DNA from: a virus
Taxonomy: Duplodnaviria > Caudoviricetes
Reading direction: 5' to 3' (one strand)
DNA length: 25,526 bases
Virus record (IMG/VR): IMGVR_UViG_3300037237_000333
Coordinates: 1 to 25,526 of that record
Every line of letters starts with the position of its first letter. Position 1 is the first letter of the stretch. The notes below the pieces were generated by a model. It was not told where the DNA came from, ran no database searches, and saw only the letters and a program-made list of their open reading frames with translations. The position numbers were made by a program, and so were the translations under genes. This document shows, piece after piece, positions 11,812-25,526 of the stretch.

Positions 11812-12044
11812 ACCCGCCCCTCACCCGGAGCCGCGTCCTCGACGAGTACCAGCTCATCGTCCGCCTACCGCAATCCGTCGGTTTCGGCTGGTTCCTTCGC
11901 GGCGAAGACGTCACCGGGATCGTCATCGACCTGATCGCCGAGGGCGCACTCGAGTCCCGGGCCGGACGGTTCGGGGGCGTACTCGAGTCCCGGGCCGGAC
12001 GGTTCTGGGGTCCCCATCTTCTCGTGGGGAAGGAAAATACATGA
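11808..12044 (+). CDS. Hypothetical protein with an 11-aa tandem duplication
   Basis: Coupled overlaps on both sides; LESRAGRF occurs twice. Confidence 0.55.
   Translation: MNPPLTRSRVLDEYQLIVRLPQSVGFGWFLRGEDVTGIVIDLIAEGALESRAGRFGGVLESRAGRFWGPHLLVGKENT
11942..12007. repeat. 33-bp tandem duplication (25-bp exact core ACTCGAGTCCCGGGCCGGACGGTTC)
   Basis: Cores at 11948-11972 and 11981-12005. Confidence 0.9.
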
Positions 12045-16970: not shown

Positions 16971-17540
16971 TTGAGTTCGACGCATCCGGCCCCCGCCGTC
17001 GACACGTTTACAACTCTCGCCGTCGGCGGGGGGAGCGATAGCGGTAACCAACAATGGTTCGTAGCGCAGATAAACCCGTCGCTGGTCGTTTTGATCGTCA
17101 GGGTGATCCAATCACTTCACTTCAGGTGCCTCGACTTCACATATCTCCAGCCGAGGCCGCGGAAGAAGCCCGTCGAACGCCGCTGGCTCCCGGGGTATCT
17201 CTTCATCAAGTTCGACCCCGACTTCGACCCGTGGGAACCCCTGCTCGACGTCCCCGGATTGACCCGCCTGCTCGGCGACACGCCCTCCCGGCCGGTATCC
17301 GTCGCCCCCGGCGAGTTGGACCGCCTGGCGGGCATCCTAGGGGCTCAGAAGGGTGTCCTGGACGCGGCCCGCCGGCCTTCGATCGCCACCGGGGACGCCG
17401 TGAAGATCTGCCTCGGCCCCTACGCCTCGTTCCAGGCGATCTGCCTGCGCTGCGTCAAGGGTAAGATCACCGTCGAAGGGACCATCTTCGGGAGGCGATT
17501 CACCACAACCCTGGCCCTCGGCGCGGTCGAGCCGGCCTGA
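16971..17540 (+). CDS. NusG-family transcription antiterminator (NGN + KOW)
   Basis: WFVAQ, LPGYLFIKFD, PGLTRLLG...PVSV, KOW GDAVKICLGPYASFQA, IFGR. RBS GGAGG before TTG. Confidence 0.85.
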   Translation: MSSTHPAPAVDTFTTLAVGGGSDSGNQQWFVAQINPSLVVLIVRVIQSLHFRCLDFTYLQPRPRKKPVERRWLPGYLFIKFDPDFDPWEPLLDVPGLTRLLGDTPSRPVSVAPGELDRLAGILGAQKGVLDAARRPSIATGDAVKICLGPYASFQAICLRCVKGKITVEGTIFGRRFTTTLALGAVEPA

Positions 17541-18264: not shown

Positions 18265-19892
18265 TGGACGAGATCGACTGGAGTGACCCTGACTACGCCG
18301 CGGTGTTCCGGCGCCGCGCCGAGCGCCTGGCGCGGATGCGCGCCGACCCCGACCTGCTGCCCGGGCTTAGGGCGTTCTACCGCGGCCACATAGCGCAGTT
18401 CATCACCGACTGGGGCTGCACGACCGACCCGCGGCTCGTCGAGCGCGGCCTCCCGGCCCTCGTGCCGTTCGTCCTCTTCCCCCGACAAAAGGAATGGGTT
18501 GGGTATCTCCTCGACCACTGGCGCCGGGGGCGGGACTTCCTCACCGAGAAGTCGCGCGACATGGGGATGTCCTGGCTCGCGGTCGGGTGCGCCGCGACGC
18601 TCTGCCTTTTCGAGGACGGCATGGCCGTGGGCTTCGGGTCGCGCAAGGAGGAATACGTCGACCGGATCGGCAGCCCGAAGTCGCTGTTCCACAAGTGCCG
18701 CGAGTTCGTGCGCCTGCTCCCCCGCGAGTTCCGCGGCGGCTGGGACCCGCGCCGCGACGCGCCGCACATGCGGATCAACTTCCCCGACACCGGCAGCCAC
18801 ATCAGCGGCGAGGCCGGATCGAACATCGGCCGCGGCGACCGCACCGGCATCTACTTCGTGGACGAAGGCGCCTACCTTGAGCAGCCGGAGCTCGTCGAGC
18901 TCTCGCTCAGCCAGACGACCAACTGCCGGGTGGACATTTCCAGCGCCAACGGGATGGCCAACCCATTCGCCCAGAAACGCCACTCCGGGAAGGTCGACGT
19001 CTTCACCTACCACTGGCGCGACGACCCGCGCAAGAGCCAAGCGTGGTACGACCGGGAGGTCGCCGACCTCGACCCGGTGATCGTCGCCCAGGAGATCGAC
19101 ATCGACTACCAGGCGAGCTCGGAGGGTCAGCTGATCCCCGCCGCCTGGGTCCAGGCCGCTGTGGACCTCCACGTCAGGCTCAACTTCGCCCCCACCGGGG
19201 CGAAGACCGCGTCCCTGGACGTGGCGGACGAGGGCCGGGACCGGAACGCCTTCCTCGGCGCGCGCGGGCCGCTTGTCGAAGTCCTGGAGGAGTGGGCCGG
19301 GATCGGCTCCGATATCTTCGCGACGACGCAGCGAGCCTTCAAGCTGTGCGACGACGGCGGGTACGCGCTCCTCCGCTACGACGCCGACGGCCTCGGCGCC
19401 GGGGTCCGCGGCGACGCCCGGATCATCAACGGTCACCGCGACCGGAAGAAGCAGCTCCTCGTCCGCGCGTTCCGCGGCTCCGAGGCCGTCGAGGAGCCGG
19501 AGAAGGAGGACGTGAGGGGCCGGGCCAACGAAGACTTCTTCGCCAACCGCAAGGCGCAGGCGTGGTGGTCTCTCCGGGCGCGATTCCAGAACGCCCACCG
19601 CGCCGTCCACGACGGGGTCGTAATGTCGCACGACGACCTGATCTCCCTGCCGTCCGGCCTCCCGCTCCTCGGGCGCCTGACGGTTGAACTCTCCCAGCCG
19701 ACGTACCACCTCAACCCGGTCGGGAAGGTGATCGTCGACAAGACGCCAGACGGCGTGAAGTCGCCGAACCTCGCGGATGCCCTCATGATTCAGTTCTCCG
19801 GCCACCGGCGCCGCGGCGTGGCGGTCACGGCCGCCGCCCTCGGGCGCATGACGGTCGCCGGGCTGGCGCGCGGGCAGCGGCGGGCCGCGTGA
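18264..19892 (+). CDS. terL: Terminase large subunit
   Basis: EKSRDMGMSW (Walker A), YFVDEGA (Walker B), SSANG, nuclease motifs LDVADEGRD, YDADGLG, SPNLADAL. Start moved to ATG 18264. Confidence 0.95.
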   Translation: MDEIDWSDPDYAAVFRRRAERLARMRADPDLLPGLRAFYRGHIAQFITDWGCTTDPRLVERGLPALVPFVLFPRQKEWVGYLLDHWRRGRDFLTEKSRDMGMSWLAVGCAATLCLFEDGMAVGFGSRKEEYVDRIGSPKSLFHKCREFVRLLPREFRGGWDPRRDAPHMRINFPDTGSHISGEAGSNIGRGDRTGIYFVDEGAYLEQPELVELSLSQTTNCRVDISSANGMANPFAQKRHSGKVDVFTYHWRDDPRKSQAWYDREVADLDPVIVAQEIDIDYQASSEGQLIPAAWVQAAVDLHVRLNFAPTGAKTASLDVADEGRDRNAFLGARGPLVEVLEEWAGIGSDIFATTQRAFKLCDDGGYALLRYDADGLGAGVRGDARIINGHRDRKKQLLVRAFRGSEAVEEPEKEDVRGRANEDFFANRKAQAWWSLRARFQNAHRAVHDGVVMSHDDLISLPSGLPLLGRLTVELSQPTYHLNPVGKVIVDKTPDGVKSPNLADALMIQFSGHRRRGVAVTAAALGRMTVAGLARGQRRAA

Positions 19893-22654
19893 AAAAGGCG
19901 AAACGGAAGCGCGAAGAGGCGCGGCGCCTGCTCGACGAGGCCGCCCGCCGCGCCGAAGCGACGCTCGCCGAGATCGGGGCGATTCCGAAGCCGCGCCGCG
20001 AGCGCGCCGACGTCCTCTCCGCGCTCGGGCGCATGGCCGGCGCCGGCAAGCCCGGACACCGCGCCCTCGCGACCCACGGAAAAGGCGCCCGCGAGGTCAG
20101 CCCGTGGACGCTGCCGGTTTACCCGCCGGGCGTCCTCCCCGGCGGCGCGACGGACCTATTGGCGATGGACGACGCGGGCGGTGCCGCGCAGTGGAACGCG
20201 ATCCCACCGGCGTGGCTCTACGGCGCCGTAAGCGGGACGGGATACCACGGGATGTGGGCCGAGGGCATCGGCTTCATGGGTTATCCGTACCTCGCCGAGC
20301 TGACGCAGCGGGCGGAATACCGCCGCCCCTCCGAGGTCATGGCCGAGGAGATGACGCGCGAGGGTTTCCGGATCAACGCCTCGGGCGACGACGACAAAAC
20401 CGAGCGGGTCAAGGTCATCGAGGAGAAGCTCAAGGAGTTCAACGTCGCCGAAGTCCTCCGGAGCGCGGTGGAGTTTGAGGGGTTCTTCGGCCGGTCTCAG
20501 GTCTATCCCGACCTCGGCCCGCTCAACGACGACACGATAAAGACGCCGCTGCTCCTCCGACCCGAATACGTGGGGAAAGGGTCGTTGAAGGGGTTCCGGG
20601 CGATCGACCCGACCTGGACGGCGCCGAATGACTACGACGCGACCGACCCCACGCGCGCCGATTTCTATAAGCCGCAGACCTGGTTCATCACGGCCCGCCT
20701 GTGGAGCGCGTCGCGGCTCCTTACGATGAACTCGCGGCCGGTACCGGACATCCTGAAGCCCGCGTACAATTTCGGCGGCCTGAGTCTCTCGCAGATGCTC
20801 AAGCCGTACGTGGACAACTGGCTCCGCACGCGGCAGGCGGTATCCGACCTACTCTACGCGTTCACCGTGTTCGTCCTCTCCACCGATTTGAACGCGCAAC
20901 TCGCGGGCGAGGGCGAGGCTCTCGGGCCGGGGACGAACGAGACGACGCGCGCCCAGGCGTTCGTGATGGCCCGGGACAACCTCGGGCTTATGATGATCAA
21001 TAAGGACCTCGAGGAGTTCCAGAACGTCTCGGCGCCGCTCGGCGGGCTCGACCACCTCCAGGCGCAGGCGCAGGAGCACATGGCGGCGGTCGCGGCGATC
21101 CCCATCGTCAAGCTGTTCGGGATCACCCCGTCGGGGCTGATGGCGACGGCCGACGGAGAGATCCGAACGTTCTACGACACGGTCAAGGCGCGACAGAAGA
21201 AGGTCCTCAGCCCGATCCTCGATACGATCGTCAAGCTCATCCAGCTCTCCGAGTTCGGCAACGTCGATCCGGCGATCGGCCACGAGTGGGTGCCGCTCTA
21301 CCGGCTCGACGCGGCGGGCGAGGCGTCCGTCCGGAAGACCGACGCGGACACCGACGCCGTGCTCATCCAAGCCGCGGTGATCTCGCCAGAGGAGTCCCGC
21401 ACGCGGCTCGCCGCCGACGCGACGAGTCCGTATCACGGCCTCGAGGGGCCGCCGCCCGAGCCCCCCGCCGCGCCGCCCGAGGGCGGCGGTGGCCTGGGCG
21501 CCGACCCGTCCGAACGCGTCGACAGCGCCGCCGAGGGCGGGGCGAAGACCGGCGCGAACGCGGCGGACGAGGCGCCCCCTTTTTCCTTCGACGCTGAGTT
21601 CAAGGAAGGCGATCATCCGCGCGGTCAGCCGGAGAACGCCGGGCAGTTCGGGCCCGGAGGAAACAGCGATAAAACGTCGCCGGACGCGCCGGAAAATGTC
21701 ACTGACCCTATCGCCGCTATGGCGCTTAAGAAAATATTGAGTATCAAGTATCTCCCCGGAGCTACGAACGCCCAGAAAGTTGAAAAATTAGGCGCGTTAA
21801 GCGACCCGGAAGATCCGTCGGTCGCCAGTTACTTGGGATCGCTGAAATCCTACCTTGCGTGGGGCGGCAACTACGCCCCTAAACAAGAAACTCTTTCTCC
21901 TGAGTTATCGCGGCCTGCCGCTATTGGTTACGAACCGCATACTGAGTCTCAGAAAAATATTTATGCAGACTTAGAAATGGCTGACCCGGTTCGTGAGAAC
22001 ATCGCGTTTGAAGTAGACGGCAGAAAAATTCTTTATAAGAGGGATACGGGTAAGATCCCGGCCGACTGGTACGAGAAAGTTACGTCGGCTTATGCTGACG
22101 GCGCCGAGCCATTGTCGAACGACGTTGATGCCGCGATGTCGGGTTACGCCAACGCCGTCGATTTGATGCTTACTAAAGATGAAGATTCCGCGGTATGGAA
22201 TTATAAGGGATCGGGGTACGATGAGATCAGAAAACGGCTTCTTGGGAAGAAGAAAAACGTAAACGACGCCGTTGAAAAAAATATTTCTGACCTAAAATCC
22301 GCCATAAATAAAACGGCGTTACCCGCAGACACCGTCTTATACCGCGGATTCAGGGCTTCTTTGAAAAAAATTGCTGGTATCGACCTCGCCGACGCCGTGG
22401 GAAAATCGTTTGTTCATAAAAATTTCGCTTCATTTTCTCGAGACGACGAAGTAGCGGCGGAGTTTGGCGGATCTACGATGATGAAAGTTACAATCAAAGC
22501 TGGCACTCCAGCTTTAGTTTTAGGTGAACAGAACGGCGGGGAGCGGGAAGTGCTGATTGACTGTAATTCGGTATTTAAGATAGATAAAATTAAAAAAGTT
22601 GGATCGCGCAACGTCATTTTCGTAACTTATCTTGGGACTTCCGTCGATGAATAA
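19889..22654 (+). CDS. Portal protein (DUF1073-type) fused to a C-terminal ADP-ribosyltransferase domain
   Basis: Portal motifs GYPYLAELTQRAEYR, DFYKPQTW, PVPDILKPAYNFGGLSLSQ, IPIVKLFGITPSGL; Pro-rich linker; ART motifs VLYRG (R at 22343), NFASFS (22421), GEREVL (22541). Confidence 0.9.
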   Translation: MKKAKRKREEARRLLDEAARRAEATLAEIGAIPKPRRERADVLSALGRMAGAGKPGHRALATHGKGAREVSPWTLPVYPPGVLPGGATDLLAMDDAGGAAQWNAIPPAWLYGAVSGTGYHGMWAEGIGFMGYPYLAELTQRAEYRRPSEVMAEEMTREGFRINASGDDDKTERVKVIEEKLKEFNVAEVLRSAVEFEGFFGRSQVYPDLGPLNDDTIKTPLLLRPEYVGKGSLKGFRAIDPTWTAPNDYDATDPTRADFYKPQTWFITARLWSASRLLTMNSRPVPDILKPAYNFGGLSLSQMLKPYVDNWLRTRQAVSDLLYAFTVFVLSTDLNAQLAGEGEALGPGTNETTRAQAFVMARDNLGLMMINKDLEEFQNVSAPLGGLDHLQAQAQEHMAAVAAIPIVKLFGITPSGLMATADGEIRTFYDTVKARQKKVLSPILDTIVKLIQLSEFGNVDPAIGHEWVPLYRLDAAGEASVRKTDADTDAVLIQAAVISPEESRTRLAADATSPYHGLEGPPPEPPAAPPEGGGGLGADPSERVDSAAEGGAKTGANAADEAPPFSFDAEFKEGDHPRGQPENAGQFGPGGNSDKTSPDAPENVTDPIAAMALKKILSIKYLPGATNAQKVEKLGALSDPEDPSVASYLGSLKSYLAWGGNYAPKQETLSPELSRPAAIGYEPHTESQKNIYADLEMADPVRENIAFEVDGRKILYKRDTGKIPADWYEKVTSAYADGAEPLSNDVDAAMSGYANAVDLMLTKDEDSAVWNYKGSGYDEIRKRLLGKKKNVNDAVEKNISDLKSAINKTALPADTVLYRGFRASLKKIAGIDLADAVGKSFVHKNFASFSRDDEVAAEFGGSTMMKVTIKAGTPALVLGEQNGGEREVLIDCNSVFKIDKIKKVGSRNVIFVTYLGTSVDE

Positions 22655-22776
22655 TGATGGCCGCCGATTTGTAGTCCTTGATGAAGATATTGAGTTGACT
22701 GACGGCGACGCGGCAGCTCAGAACAACGAAAAAGGTAAAGAGCAGGGCGCCGAGGCCCGCGCGAACGCGGCGGACG
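21552..22776. repeat. 18-bp exact direct repeat GCGCGAACGCGGCGGACG (21552-21569 and 22759-22776)
   Basis: Read directly; both copies encode ANAAD in the same codon phase. Confidence 0.9.
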
Positions 22777-24266
22777 TAGCACTCGACGCGCAGGTCGGCA
22801 AGTGGGAAGAGGGCAAGCACCCGCGCGGCCCTGACGGCAAGTTTGTCGCGGGCGCGGGCGAGGCGGTCAAGTCCTACGGCGAGACGCTTGGCGGTAAGAA
22901 GGGCTCCGCTGCGGGCCTGATCAAGCATATGCTGGCCTCGGGTGACTTTTCTGCAGGCGATGTCTTCGCCACGGCGAAGGCGGCCTTTGGGGTTGACCTC
23001 CCAGGAAAGGGCTATACGCCTGAGTCCTATGTGAAGTGGTACCACAGCGATATGAAGAAGAAGGGGCTTAACCCGCCCCCGATCCCAAAAGTCACAAAGC
23101 CGAAGGCCGAACAGGAAGCTATGAAGGAAGAGTCTGACGACCCTGACGCAGAGCTCGGCGCGGGGCCTGAAGAAAAGGAAACGCCCGAGGCAGCAAAGGC
23201 CCCCGCGAAAGCGGCGAAGGCTGACTGGCTTATTAGTCAGGCGGCGAAGAACATCATCGCTCCGGTCGAGAAGCTCATCGAAGACCCGAACTTCAGTTCT
23301 CCGAATAAGGCCGCCGTAAAGGCGAAGCTCGACGAGATCAACGCCGCGACCGCGGCCGAATACCCGATCGCGGCGCTCGTGAAGATCACCCCGATGACCC
23401 AGTCGGGCCCGATGCCGAGCACAGTCAACGCCTTCCTCGCCCAGCTCGAAGCGGAGAACGGGATCGAGCCCGACACGGCGACCCCGGTCGAAGGGCCGAA
23501 GCCGAGCGCGGCGGTCAAGGCGGCTGCCGTAAAGGCCGTCTACGCCGTTGCCAAGGACCTCCCTCACTACGAGACGGAACAGGCCCACAAGTACCAGGAC
23601 GCGAAGGGTCAGAAGGTCCGCTCTGTCTTTAAGGCAGACACCGCGACGATCGATGACCACGGGTACGCGAAGGTCACCGCGGCCTACGGGAACGATCCGG
23701 ACGACGCGATGACGCCCGAGGTCTGTAAGGCGATGGACGAATATAGTACGGTCGTTCGTAAAAAGATGTCCTCCGCCGAGGACGCCGCAGTGACGTCCTA
23801 CAAGGGAAATGGTTATCATTCGATCAACGGATACCTCCTCGGCAAAAAGAGTGGTGAAGGCGGAGTTAAGGAGAAGGTCGATAACATCCGTTCGGCGATC
23901 CGTAAGACCTCGGTTCCGGCGGACACGCCGGTCTGGCGCGGTCTTACCGCGAGCCTGAAGGACCTGACCGGCTTCGACGATCCGGCCCAGGCTGTCGGTC
24001 GATGCTTTGAGCACAAGAACTTCGCGTCCGTCTCGCGCCACTTTCAGACCTCGGCCGCTTTCGGTGACAAAGTCATGCTCAAGATGACCCTGAAGGCCGG
24101 AACGCCGGGCCTCGTCCTCGGCGGGCAGGGTACGAGCGGCGAGGCGGAAATCGTTCTCGACCATTCCTCGATGTTCCGCGTCGACAAGGTGGAACAGAAC
24201 CCATACGGCGGCGATGCGAAGCACGTCGTCCATGTGACTTACCTCGGAGTACGTGAAGATGGCTGA
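22647..24266 (+). CDS. Second ADP-ribosyltransferase protein (HPR motif + helical domain + linker + VIP2/Alt-like ART)
   Basis: ATG 22647 overlaps the portal stop. WEEGKHPRGPDGKF; YKGNGYHSINGYL, VWRGL, NFASVS, GEAEIVL. Confidence 0.9.
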   Translation: MNNDGRRFVVLDEDIELTDGDAAAQNNEKGKEQGAEARANAADVALDAQVGKWEEGKHPRGPDGKFVAGAGEAVKSYGETLGGKKGSAAGLIKHMLASGDFSAGDVFATAKAAFGVDLPGKGYTPESYVKWYHSDMKKKGLNPPPIPKVTKPKAEQEAMKEESDDPDAELGAGPEEKETPEAAKAPAKAAKADWLISQAAKNIIAPVEKLIEDPNFSSPNKAAVKAKLDEINAATAAEYPIAALVKITPMTQSGPMPSTVNAFLAQLEAENGIEPDTATPVEGPKPSAAVKAAAVKAVYAVAKDLPHYETEQAHKYQDAKGQKVRSVFKADTATIDDHGYAKVTAAYGNDPDDAMTPEVCKAMDEYSTVVRKKMSSAEDAAVTSYKGNGYHSINGYLLGKKSGEGGVKEKVDNIRSAIRKTSVPADTPVWRGLTASLKDLTGFDDPAQAVGRCFEHKNFASVSRHFQTSAAFGDKVMLKMTLKAGTPGLVLGGQGTSGEAEIVLDHSSMFRVDKVEQNPYGGDAKHVVHVTYLGVREDG

Positions 24267-24432
24267 CGAAAACGACCGCTCGCGTTGGACGACCGAGGCG
24301 GAGGGCGTCGCCCCCTTGACCCTGGAAGGTACCGAGGACCGGACAACCCCGGAAAACCACGTGAAGGCCGAGGAAAATGCCCTTACTATCGCCAAGGCCC
24401 GCCACGAGAGGGTCGCCCTCGAGGCCGAGTGA
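24259..24432 (+). CDS. 57-aa acidic peptide, candidate ART immunity/inhibitor
   Basis: Not in the ORF track: [57 protein letters not shown]. Overlaps the ART2 stop and the MuF start. Confidence 0.65.
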
Positions 24433-25259
24433 CCAAGCTCGTCGCGACGTCCCCGAAGCCCGTCCACGTCCCGGCGACGCGCCCGAACGCGGGGATCGAA
24501 GTCGCCTACCGGAAGCGGCTCCTCGCCGCGCTCGCCGCGATGGAGAAGAACGTCCTCCGCACGGTCAGCCTGCTCTACGCCGACGACCCGCCCGAGCTGG
24601 CTCAGGACGAGTCCCCGGCCGCTGCGCTCGCGGCGGCGATGGTCGAGCTCCGGCGGCGGTGGGATCGGGAGTTCTCGACCATCGCGAACACCTGGGGGCG
24701 GCGGTTCACGGCCGACGCGACCGGGCACGCGGACCGGGCCTTCGCCGCGCAGCTCCGCAAGGCGGGGTTCACGGTCAAGTTCACGATGTCGGCGAAGGCG
24801 CAGGACGTCTTCACCGCGACGCTGAAGGAGCAGGTCAACCTGATAACGTCGATATCGGCCGAGGCGATGACGCAGCTCTCGTCGGTCGTCGCGCAGAGCG
24901 TCACGACCGGGCGCGCCGTCGGCGATCTCGCCAAGGCGCTCCGCGAGCAGTTCGGCGTCGAGCGGCGCCGCGCGGCGACCATCGCCCGGGACCAGAACTC
25001 GAAGGCGACGGCGACGATCACCAGGGTCCGGCAGGAGGAGCTCGGGATCACCCAGGCGCGGTGGTCGCACTCGGCCGGCGGCAAGGTTCCCCGCCCGGAG
25101 CACGTCGCGTTCTCGAAGGGGGCGCACCGCGGCCAGAACCCGGGGCCGATCTACGACATCGCCAAGGGCGCGCTGCTCGAGGGAAAGTGGACGTGGCCGG
25201 GTGTCGAGATCAACTGCCGGTGCGTGAGCGTATCAATTTTGCCGGGGTTGAAGACGTGA
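24429..25259 (+). CDS. muF: Head morphogenesis protein (MuF / SPP1 gp7 family), short form without toxin
   Basis: GTG 24429; [46 protein letters not shown]. Confidence 0.92.
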
Positions 25260-25526
25260 GAGGGTTTAAGGAGGCCGATCACCCGCGCGGCCAGGCCGAC
25301 GCCGTCGCCCTAGACCGCGCCGCGCTGGAGAACCGCACCGTATCGAAGGACGGCCACCTCCACGTCGCGAAGAGCCATATCTCGAAGGCGCAGGTTTCCG
25401 AGTACAAGGGCGCGGAGATCCCCGGTGCCGAGGCCCTCGGACTCGACCCGGGGAAGACCTACCGCCTCCTTCGCGACCCGGCCGAGCTCGCGAAGGCGGC
25501 GAAGACGTTCGATAACCTACCGATCC
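25256..25526 (+). CDS. DUF2213 head protein (putative maturation protease/scaffold), N-terminal part
   Basis: Translated by hand from GTG 25256: [87 protein letters not shown]. Confidence 0.88.

Follow-up and report, generated by a model that had tools for sequence, protein, structure and literature searches.

How a phage spares its producing cell from an enzyme, ADP-ribosyltransferase (ART), made late and packaged into the head, is a question to which no answer was found in the papers searched, and it is raised by the stretch of viral DNA analysed here (the window: 25,526 nucleotides (nt), positions 1 to 25,526 of IMG/VR record IMGVR_UViG_3300037237_000333, Duplodnaviria; Caudoviricetes). 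The + strand end of this 25.5-kb virus record is a head module encoding small and large terminase, portal, two ART domains (ART1 and ART2), a short MuF protein and the start of a DUF2213 protein, and the end of each ART coding sequence overlaps the start of a further small coding sequence, termed peptide 1 and peptide 2. A first-pass annotation had proposed that the two peptides are homologous, that they form a new immunity family of cognate inhibitors, possibly acting as Arg pseudosubstrates, and that they make up a daisy-chained toxin/immunity array. Sequence comparison indicates that the small open reading frame (ORF) behind this clade of ARTs is a real, new small-protein family, tied strictly to a single ART clade of phage head modules and not to the head module itself; a complex model further suggests that peptide 2 binds in the active-site cleft of ART2.

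Relatives of ART2 were taken from viral and metagenome contigs and 21 loci were examined, leaving out L004, whose contig stops within the ART, L025, the sole match of a GTDB genome scan, rejected as spurious, and L001 and L002, repeats of L007 and L006. An ORF of 51–83 amino acids lies right behind the ART in 21/21 loci with downstream DNA, yielding 15 distinct peptides, each of which scores against a profile built from the remaining 14 (shuffles reaching the score, 0/500). When 1.84 billion representatives were searched with a profile, 83 clusters came up at an expect value (E) of ≤0.001, 10 of them the query's own sequences. The 77-member set used below consists of these clusters without the window peptide, a single tandem form and three long ones. 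Its members share the consensus R[FW]-x6-[IV]-x-[PM]-L-G-x6-D-x2-[ST][PE]E, followed by a helix, with a median length of 60 amino acids and a net acidic composition in 67/77; the Arg is conserved in 70/75 members, the F/W in 71/75 and the Gly in 63/75. The small ORF shows a coding-type substitution bias and a purine run resembling a ribosome site, substitutions in three peptide pairs being biased towards the third codon position (33 vs 15/15, 34 vs 16/17 and 37 vs 27/27).

When 17, 17 and 75 members were scanned against Pfam, PHROG and NCBIfam, respectively, no family was matched by more than one member, and no ADP-ribosylhydrolase domain was matched in any of the three scans. Searches of the PDB gave no sequence match better than E 0.8 and no fold match, and Atlas matches were all below 0.9. 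No description of the family was found in the literature, a search that covered main texts and not the supplements, where lists of small downstream ORFs might include it. A search for longer, fused peptide forms found none, which is weak evidence. Among individual family proteins, P0024 comprises two family units in tandem within 97 amino acids, the peptide is attached to unrelated sequence in P0054, P0087 and P0104, and P0080, an independent protein, carries the peptide and a leader ahead of a GKF tag-like motif, echoing the arrangement of ORF2 in the window described below.

The link to the ART was examined in a control set of 160 loci (1.58 Mb) chosen by MuF similarity alone. The peptide is present in 10/160 of these loci, each time directly behind a clade ART, and one of the ten loci is new (L100); the set contains 11 clade ARTs, the 11th being cut by the contig end. 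The other 149 loci have neither a clade ART nor a peptide; in 75 of these the DNA extends for 3.5 kb or more on each side, representing 57 distinct groups at 90%. In two of the 149 peptide-free loci there is a distant ART accompanied by a small ORF of another kind: a conserved, very acidic ORF of 35 amino acids, unrelated to the peptide family (L156:5275-5382 and L178:5156-5263), sits 82 nt downstream of distant ARTs that end HPR-tagged proteins of 1100–1300 amino acids (the HPR tag is described below) and possibly represents a second micro-immunity type. ART and peptide genes move together between portal-fused (L009), post-portal (L007, L015) and post-MuF (L003, L010, L017, L018) positions, and the gene after the pair may encode MuF, a NUDIX-DUF2213 protein or others. 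The NUDIX-DUF2213 protease fusion follows the peptide in many relatives (L003:4718-6526, L006:4834-5802 and others), and its NUDIX domain is a possible ADP-ribose-processing partner; fusions of this type have been noted previously (PMC9503650). Two complete phage records hold one peptide copy each, and across four whole records the peptide profile missed a divergent copy (L014, in G004) and gave one weak extra match (G003, 13.7 bits). ART and peptide similarities are correlated over 16 pairs (rho 0.50, 0/5000 permutations), which indicates co-inheritance only. Scans for loci that started from the peptide, aimed at carriers lacking an ART, yielded no usable loci, with 0 stretches for one pattern, four chance matches for another (L026-L029) and none for a single peptide.

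In the window, ART1 is the C-terminal part of a 921-amino-acid portal fusion (19889..22654, +), in which the portal domain (PF06381, residues 134-490) is followed by a linker, an HPR tag and the ART1 match (PF03496, residues 758-905); the ART1 catalytic domain (22160..22603, +) is AT-rich, with a third-position GC of 0.45, and carries YRG, S-F-S and E-R-E motifs. Peptide 1 (22647..22745, +) forms codons 1-33 of the 539-amino-acid ORF2 (22647..24266, +), has no stop of its own, and continues in frame through A-x-D motifs, an HPR tag (22803-22829) and two helical domains into ART2 (PF03496, residues 370-529, +; WRG, S-V-S and E-A-E). Peptide 2 is a free ORF of 57 amino acids (24259..24432, +) with an extended N-terminal half, a helix at residues 31-56 and a GGAG 9 nt upstream. 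The junctions are as first described: ART1 ends in VTYLG-TSVDE-stop at 22654 with the next ATG at 22647, and ART2 ends in VTYLG-x5-stop at 24266 with the next ATG at 24259, each overlap being exactly 8 base pairs (bp). Contigs from another study (run X2) cover 22252-23453 and 24035-25500 with 0 differences, so neither overlap junction is an assembly error. The placement of peptide 1 within an AT-rich block is likewise borne out, third-position GC being 0.45 in ORF2 codons 1-33 vs 0.79 in codons 34-120.

The homology of the two window peptides is a different matter. Peptide 2 is, by sequence, a full family member, scoring 24.3 bits against the profile of the 15 non-window peptides (0/2000 shuffles) and 42.7 bits against the 77-member profile (0/1000 shuffles). 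Peptide 1 scores 3.6 bits against the former (reached by 146/2000 shuffles over 50 amino acids and 63/2000 over 35) and, against the latter, 3.0 bits over 50 amino acids (318/1000), 4.4 over 40 (93/1000), 4.5 over 30 (9/1000) and 5.2 over 20 (2/1000), the 20-residue cut being the best among four lengths tried; in pairwise comparison with the 77 members, its mean score is reached by 46/300 shuffles and its best by 60/300. Peptides 1 and 2 give no BLASTP alignment with each other at E≤100, so that the motif on which their pairwise homology had been based is not significant by itself. The first part of that motif, ND-x2-R-[FW]-x4-E-x-[IV], is literally present in both peptides; the pattern M-x-R[FW]-x6-[IV] occurs in 6/240 ATG-started 30-mers of the window, two of which are peptides 1 and 2. 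The remaining parts of the motif contrast with this, as LT..G and N-x2-K-x2-E are not conserved in the family. Peptide 1 possesses the R[FW]-x6-[IV] core (R-F-VVLDED-I, residues 7-15), lacks [PM]-L-G and D-x2-[ST][PE]E, and is not a free-standing ORF. Its similarity is significant only over the first 20-30 residues; in view of its position behind ART1, it is probably a member of half length or one that has diverged strongly, with homology confined to the first half and divergence or truncation of the second.

There is a little less than an even chance that peptide 1 is a decayed remnant, serving now only as start and leader of ART2, with ART1 left unguarded, weak or covered by peptide 2; such decay concerns peptide 1 alone and is compatible with inhibition by peptide 2. 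The loss of P-L-G, D-x-x-T-P-E and its own stop and the non-significant full-length score fit this account, as does an Arg in ART1 at a clade-conserved Asn, and 21/36 predicted ART2 interface residues are kept in ART1, so that cross-protection is plausible. Peptide 1 nevertheless keeps the 8-bp overlap and the AT-rich signature of ART1, its R-F-x6-I core is the carrier of most predicted contacts in peptide 2, and two A-x-D motifs between peptide 1 and the tag would make its release possible. The earlier suggestion that peptide 1 is the inhibitor of ART1 is weakly supported, the P-L-G and D-x-x-T-P-E parts being absent from peptide 1.

The sequence suggests how the fusion of peptide 1 to ART2 arose. 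An 18-bp exact direct repeat (the longest in 100 shuffles was 16 nt) occurs at 21552..21569 (+) and, 1207 bp further on, at 22759..22776 (+); the first copy encodes ANAAD, part of a portal linker found also in L172, and would be the left edge of an inserted cassette, and the second is followed by VALDAQ and the HPR tag of ART2. Third-position GC drops from 0.91 to 0.45 between the repeat copies, stays low to codon 33 of peptide 1, and is then 0.79. Given the repeat and the GC break, it is likely that a 1207-bp AT-rich cassette of ART1 and peptide 1 was inserted once, into the portal linker of a locus ordered portal-ART2-peptide 2-MuF. If 1207 bp are removed from the window in thought, a portal-tag-ART2-peptide 2-MuF order is left, which is the layout of L009, and ORF2 beyond residue 48 is an ordinary family member in which the usual leader has been swapped for peptide 1. 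The insertion would have displaced ART2, which would now borrow the start codon of peptide 1. The ORF2 fusion is best read as a by-product of this event and not as a conserved daisy chain; the chain holds as the gene arrangement of this phage but is not supported as a general design, two ART cassettes in tandem being found in 0/21 relative loci within the DNA fetched. Among the contigs of eight runs, which can show presence only, none joins 21552 to 22759 and no cassette-free form was seen. Insertion of toxin cassettes has been described for polymorphic toxins (PMC3482391), and the window would record, at a portal gene, a phage counterpart of the toxin-tip exchange in polymorphic toxin loci.

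By domain match, fold and motifs, both window ARTs are putative VIP2/Alt-like R-S-E ADP-ribosyltransferases. The two ART regions share 43% identity over 219 amino acids and match PF03496 with 59.5 and 69.5 bits (cut-off 23.4), and R119, S149, S151, E187 and E189 are invariant in 31/31 aligned sequences, both window ARTs included. Fold matches of ORF2 comprise CDTa, iota, C3 and 8ZA7, of the VIP2/iota/C3 catalytic-domain type, with 8ZA7 chain B among the top two (template modelling score 0.78 over the target), and a window ORF matches phrog_802. In ART1, the helix YDEIRKRL (window 22220-22260; the YxxIN helix) carries an Arg at a position that is almost invariably Asn in the clade. Two small helical domains separate the tag from ART2 (ORF2 ~71-138, window 22857-23060, and ORF2 ~198-270); they are confidently folded with a predicted local distance difference test (pLDDT) value of 80-95, kept in the family and without a Pfam or PHROG match; the first may, as a guess, bind DNA. 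A search of viral contigs with ART1 alone gave no close relatives, a tblastn search of 50,697 INPHARED phage records gave no match to the ART2 clade, and plasmid matches are distant ARTs at 24-28%.

Modelled as a complex, the ART2 domain and peptide 2 score 0.84, the best of 3 controls reaching 0.48; the mark applied is reached by 116/157 solved complexes and 2/215 mismatched pairs, counts that are only rough with the alignments used here. The runs have 59% or more of their contacts in common, with a partner pLDDT of 58 or higher. Peptide 2 is predicted to contact, through its residues 6-23, ART2 residues 73-86, 119-130 and 139-151, with V17-A18-P19 packing against F142-H144. Among the segments contacted in the model are the strand of the catalytic Arg and the S-x-S motif, which by ART family anatomy form the nicotinamide adenine dinucleotide (NAD) cleft (PMC8120803), and the predicted interface coincides with the conserved peptide residues (R 70/75, F/W 71/75). 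Occlusion of the cleft is favoured because the peptide 2 core contacts these NAD-cleft elements in the model: peptide 2 is probably a cognate inhibitor whose R-[FW]...[IV]-x-P-L segment is laid in the NAD-binding cleft of the ART, and cognate inhibition by whichever means, the decoy variant weighed below counted in, may be held with good confidence. Of the proposed new immunity family, the ART-tied small-ORF family stands on the 21/21 loci, the 83 clusters and the MuF-selected set, and this model supports binding at the active-site cleft.

The decoy variant would make the peptide a sacrificial or pseudo-substrate, its invariant Arg facing the E-x-E loop and either accepting the ADP-ribose or imitating the acceptor. 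E-x-E is the motif of Arg-modifying ARTs. MTX and iota are examples (PMC8120803), both window ARTs have it, the Arg of the peptide is kept in 70/75 members, and the model places peptide 2 in the catalytic cleft. The predicted contacts, however, follow the R119-G120 strand and F142-S151, with no E187/E189 and no residue-9 pair among the 25 best, a weak point in that E187 and E189, while not among the named confident contacts, are thereby uncertain and not excluded. Binding in the cleft is what the model predicts, and the pseudosubstrate mode put forward in the first-pass annotation is considered unlikely.

An improbable alternative is that the peptide is a folding or loading chaperone, or an activating cofactor, of the ART. 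Strict linkage and predicted binding would suit any dedicated partner, and a chaperone need is reported for another bacterial ART (PMC11606950); the predicted footprint, however, covers the NAD-binding motifs and would block catalysis, and the position and size of the peptide gene match those of polymorphic-toxin immunity genes (PMC3482391, PMC5576092). A programmed frameshift that reads the small ORF as an auto-inhibitory C-terminal tail of the ART is very unlikely: the -8 overlap that invites it is found in 12/21 loci and at both window copies, but the offsets of the other 9 loci (-17, -4, -1, +11, +23, +57 and +66) cover all three frames and detached copies carry their own purine-rich ribosome sites, a spread by which this reading is largely refuted. 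Equally hard to credit is that the small ORF is a routine gene of the head module, or overlaps by chance, and has nothing to do with the ART. Overlaps are common in a dense head operon and the window peptides do not align pairwise, but the MuF-selected control refutes this reading unless many ART-less carriers turn up: the peptide is absent from 149/149 loci free of clade ARTs and follows each complete clade ART regardless of the next gene.

Several points weigh against peptide 2 as a cleft-binding inhibitor or against the strictness of its link. The control in which peptide 2 is kept and the ART swapped for an unrelated protein is the one that scores 0.48, so the peptide is somewhat sticky in the model; conservation is higher at the ART interface (0.74 vs 0.55), as expected of any active site; and the Gly kept in 63/75 members is absent from both window peptides. 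Nine of the 10 positive MuF-selected loci are contigs seen before, the MuF queries were drawn from ART-bearing loci, and about 73 family clusters lie outside the examined loci, among which peptides lacking an ART may exist. T4 Alt is non-essential and no inhibitor of it is mentioned in the partial text of PMC9026906, which means that an ART can be packaged without necessarily needing one. Gene position and the analogy with T4 Alt are moreover the grounds for proposing packaging, cleavage at [AR]-x-D and ejection, and inhibition by family members is a prediction.

If peptide 2 does act as a cognate inhibitor, a scheme for sparing the producing cell can be outlined. The overlap would couple translation, such that the inhibitor is made along with the enzyme during late expression; the ART would be packaged and cut from the portal or leader at [AR]-x-D by the head protease; and it would be ejected into the next host with the untagged peptide left behind, leaving the enzyme active only in the newly infected cell. 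An AlphaFold2 model of the whole of ORF2, with pLDDT below 50 at residues 1-70 and no peptide rows in its alignment, is silent on docking of peptide 1 in cis.

The tag on which this scheme depends, named the HPR tag in this analysis, is the motif [FWY]-x-E-x-x-H-P-R-x-x-x-G-x-F, found in the window at 21599-21625 (+, the tag of ART1, FKEGDHPRG), 22803-22829 and 25265-25291 and in 54 distinct occurrences in the fetched loci, with no Pfam match seen. It heads portal extensions, stand-alone cargoes and, here, the head protease too, and the constant portal or HPR part is joined to many differing and unrelated C-terminal regions in related loci; its role in trafficking would follow from this arrangement. 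An [AR]-x-D lies ahead of the tag in 43/54 occurrences vs 312/4413 background windows (7%), and may, to judge from the way T4 Alt is processed (PMC9026906), be a protease site, making the HPR motif a candidate capsid-targeting tag with a protease site. More speculative, and doubtful at present, is a general head-cargo system in which [AR]-x-D and HPR route interchangeable enzymes and packaging parts a safety catch of about 55 residues from the ART, with the protease freeing peptide 1 to give a working two-toxin chain from one recombination.

Downstream of peptide 2 the head module continues with the short MuF head-morphogenesis protein (24429..25259, +; 276 amino acids, without a toxin extension) and the start of the DUF2213 head-maturation protease, which bears the third HPR motif and is cut by the window end (25256..25526, +). 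Directly ahead of the terminase genes, a NusG-family gene at 16971-17540 likely encodes a late antiterminator. On the - strand are genes for, among others, DNA polymerase A, a ribonucleotide reductase and a primase-helicase (DUF3854/DUF5906), and the longest exact direct repeat of the window (25 nt, 11948-12005, copies 33 nt apart) lies in a - strand ORF region of the replication module. A PADLOC scan gave no match, and a promoter and terminator scan of the window found nothing exceeding chance. Near-identical pieces of the window are present in peat and permafrost metagenome runs, two of which contain at least half of its words, one of these two perhaps being the source. In one metatranscriptome run, two short stretches match the portal part exactly and nothing covers the peptides, which has no bearing on expression.

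Packaged phage ARTs at portal and MuF are already known (PMC9503650, PMC5512222), and the closest parallels differ from the present pair in informative ways. T4 Alt and the phage Alt/VIP2 ARTs at portal or MuF are likewise head-module ARTs, and they are packaged, processed by the prohead protease and injected (PMC9503650, PMC9026906, PMC5512222); no cognate inhibitor is mentioned for them in the partial texts of these papers. In MuF toxins of temperate phages, a small downstream ORF, proposed as immunity, accompanies 89.4% of 191 toxin genes (PMC5576092), and the window resembles these polymorphic toxins in having a toxin domain in the head and packaging module, an ART being among the MuF cargoes, and a small ORF directly downstream (PMC5576092). 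Membership in that class is defined by a toxin domain C-terminal to MuF, whereas ART1 is portal-fused and ART2 lacks a MuF domain; the ARTs are portal-fused or stand alone behind an HPR tag, MuF is a separate gene of 276 amino acids, and the peptide, of 51-83 amino acids, is one family tied to one ART clade. The broader hallmarks of polymorphic toxins, a constant part with variable C-terminal cargo and a small downstream gene exchanged with the toxin (PMC3482391), are both found.

Among immunity proteins of ARTs, the Bxa/Bsi/BAH system of a Bacteroides stercoris prophage likewise has a prophage ART neutralised by a small non-enzymatic protein, with an active-site model (PMC11699363). Bsi, however, has at least 92 residues and is accompanied by a hydrolase (PMC11699363), and no hydrolase gene lies beside the window ARTs. 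As to described small immunity families, such as Imm41 and Bsi, the Pfam, PHROG and NCBIfam scans, in which Bsi itself was not compared, gave no family shared by two or more peptide members, and with no hydrolase domain and a median of 60 amino acids the family falls outside ADP-ribosylhydrolase-type immunity (Tri1, BAH, Imm-ADP-RGHD). By analogy, the peptide likely acts as do the small immunity proteins that bind ART toxins, and it sits at the position expected of MuF-toxin immunity. If inhibition is true, R-S-E ARTs would have a natural inhibitor of unusually small size, packaged ARTs could be traced in metagenomes by means of the family, and compounds that block the NAD cleft of the ART fold could be modelled on it. 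A protein of 57 residues with a predicted binding core of 18 is synthesisable and offers a direct handle. Tre1, paired with Tri1, is an R-S-E ART too, and a short N-terminal extension of Tri1 occludes its active site (PMC8120803); Tri1 and the immunity protein of the Listeria ART-ARH pair 8ZA7 are full hydrolase domains, whereas the peptide family, without a catalytic domain, resembles the occluding extension of Tri1 standing alone.

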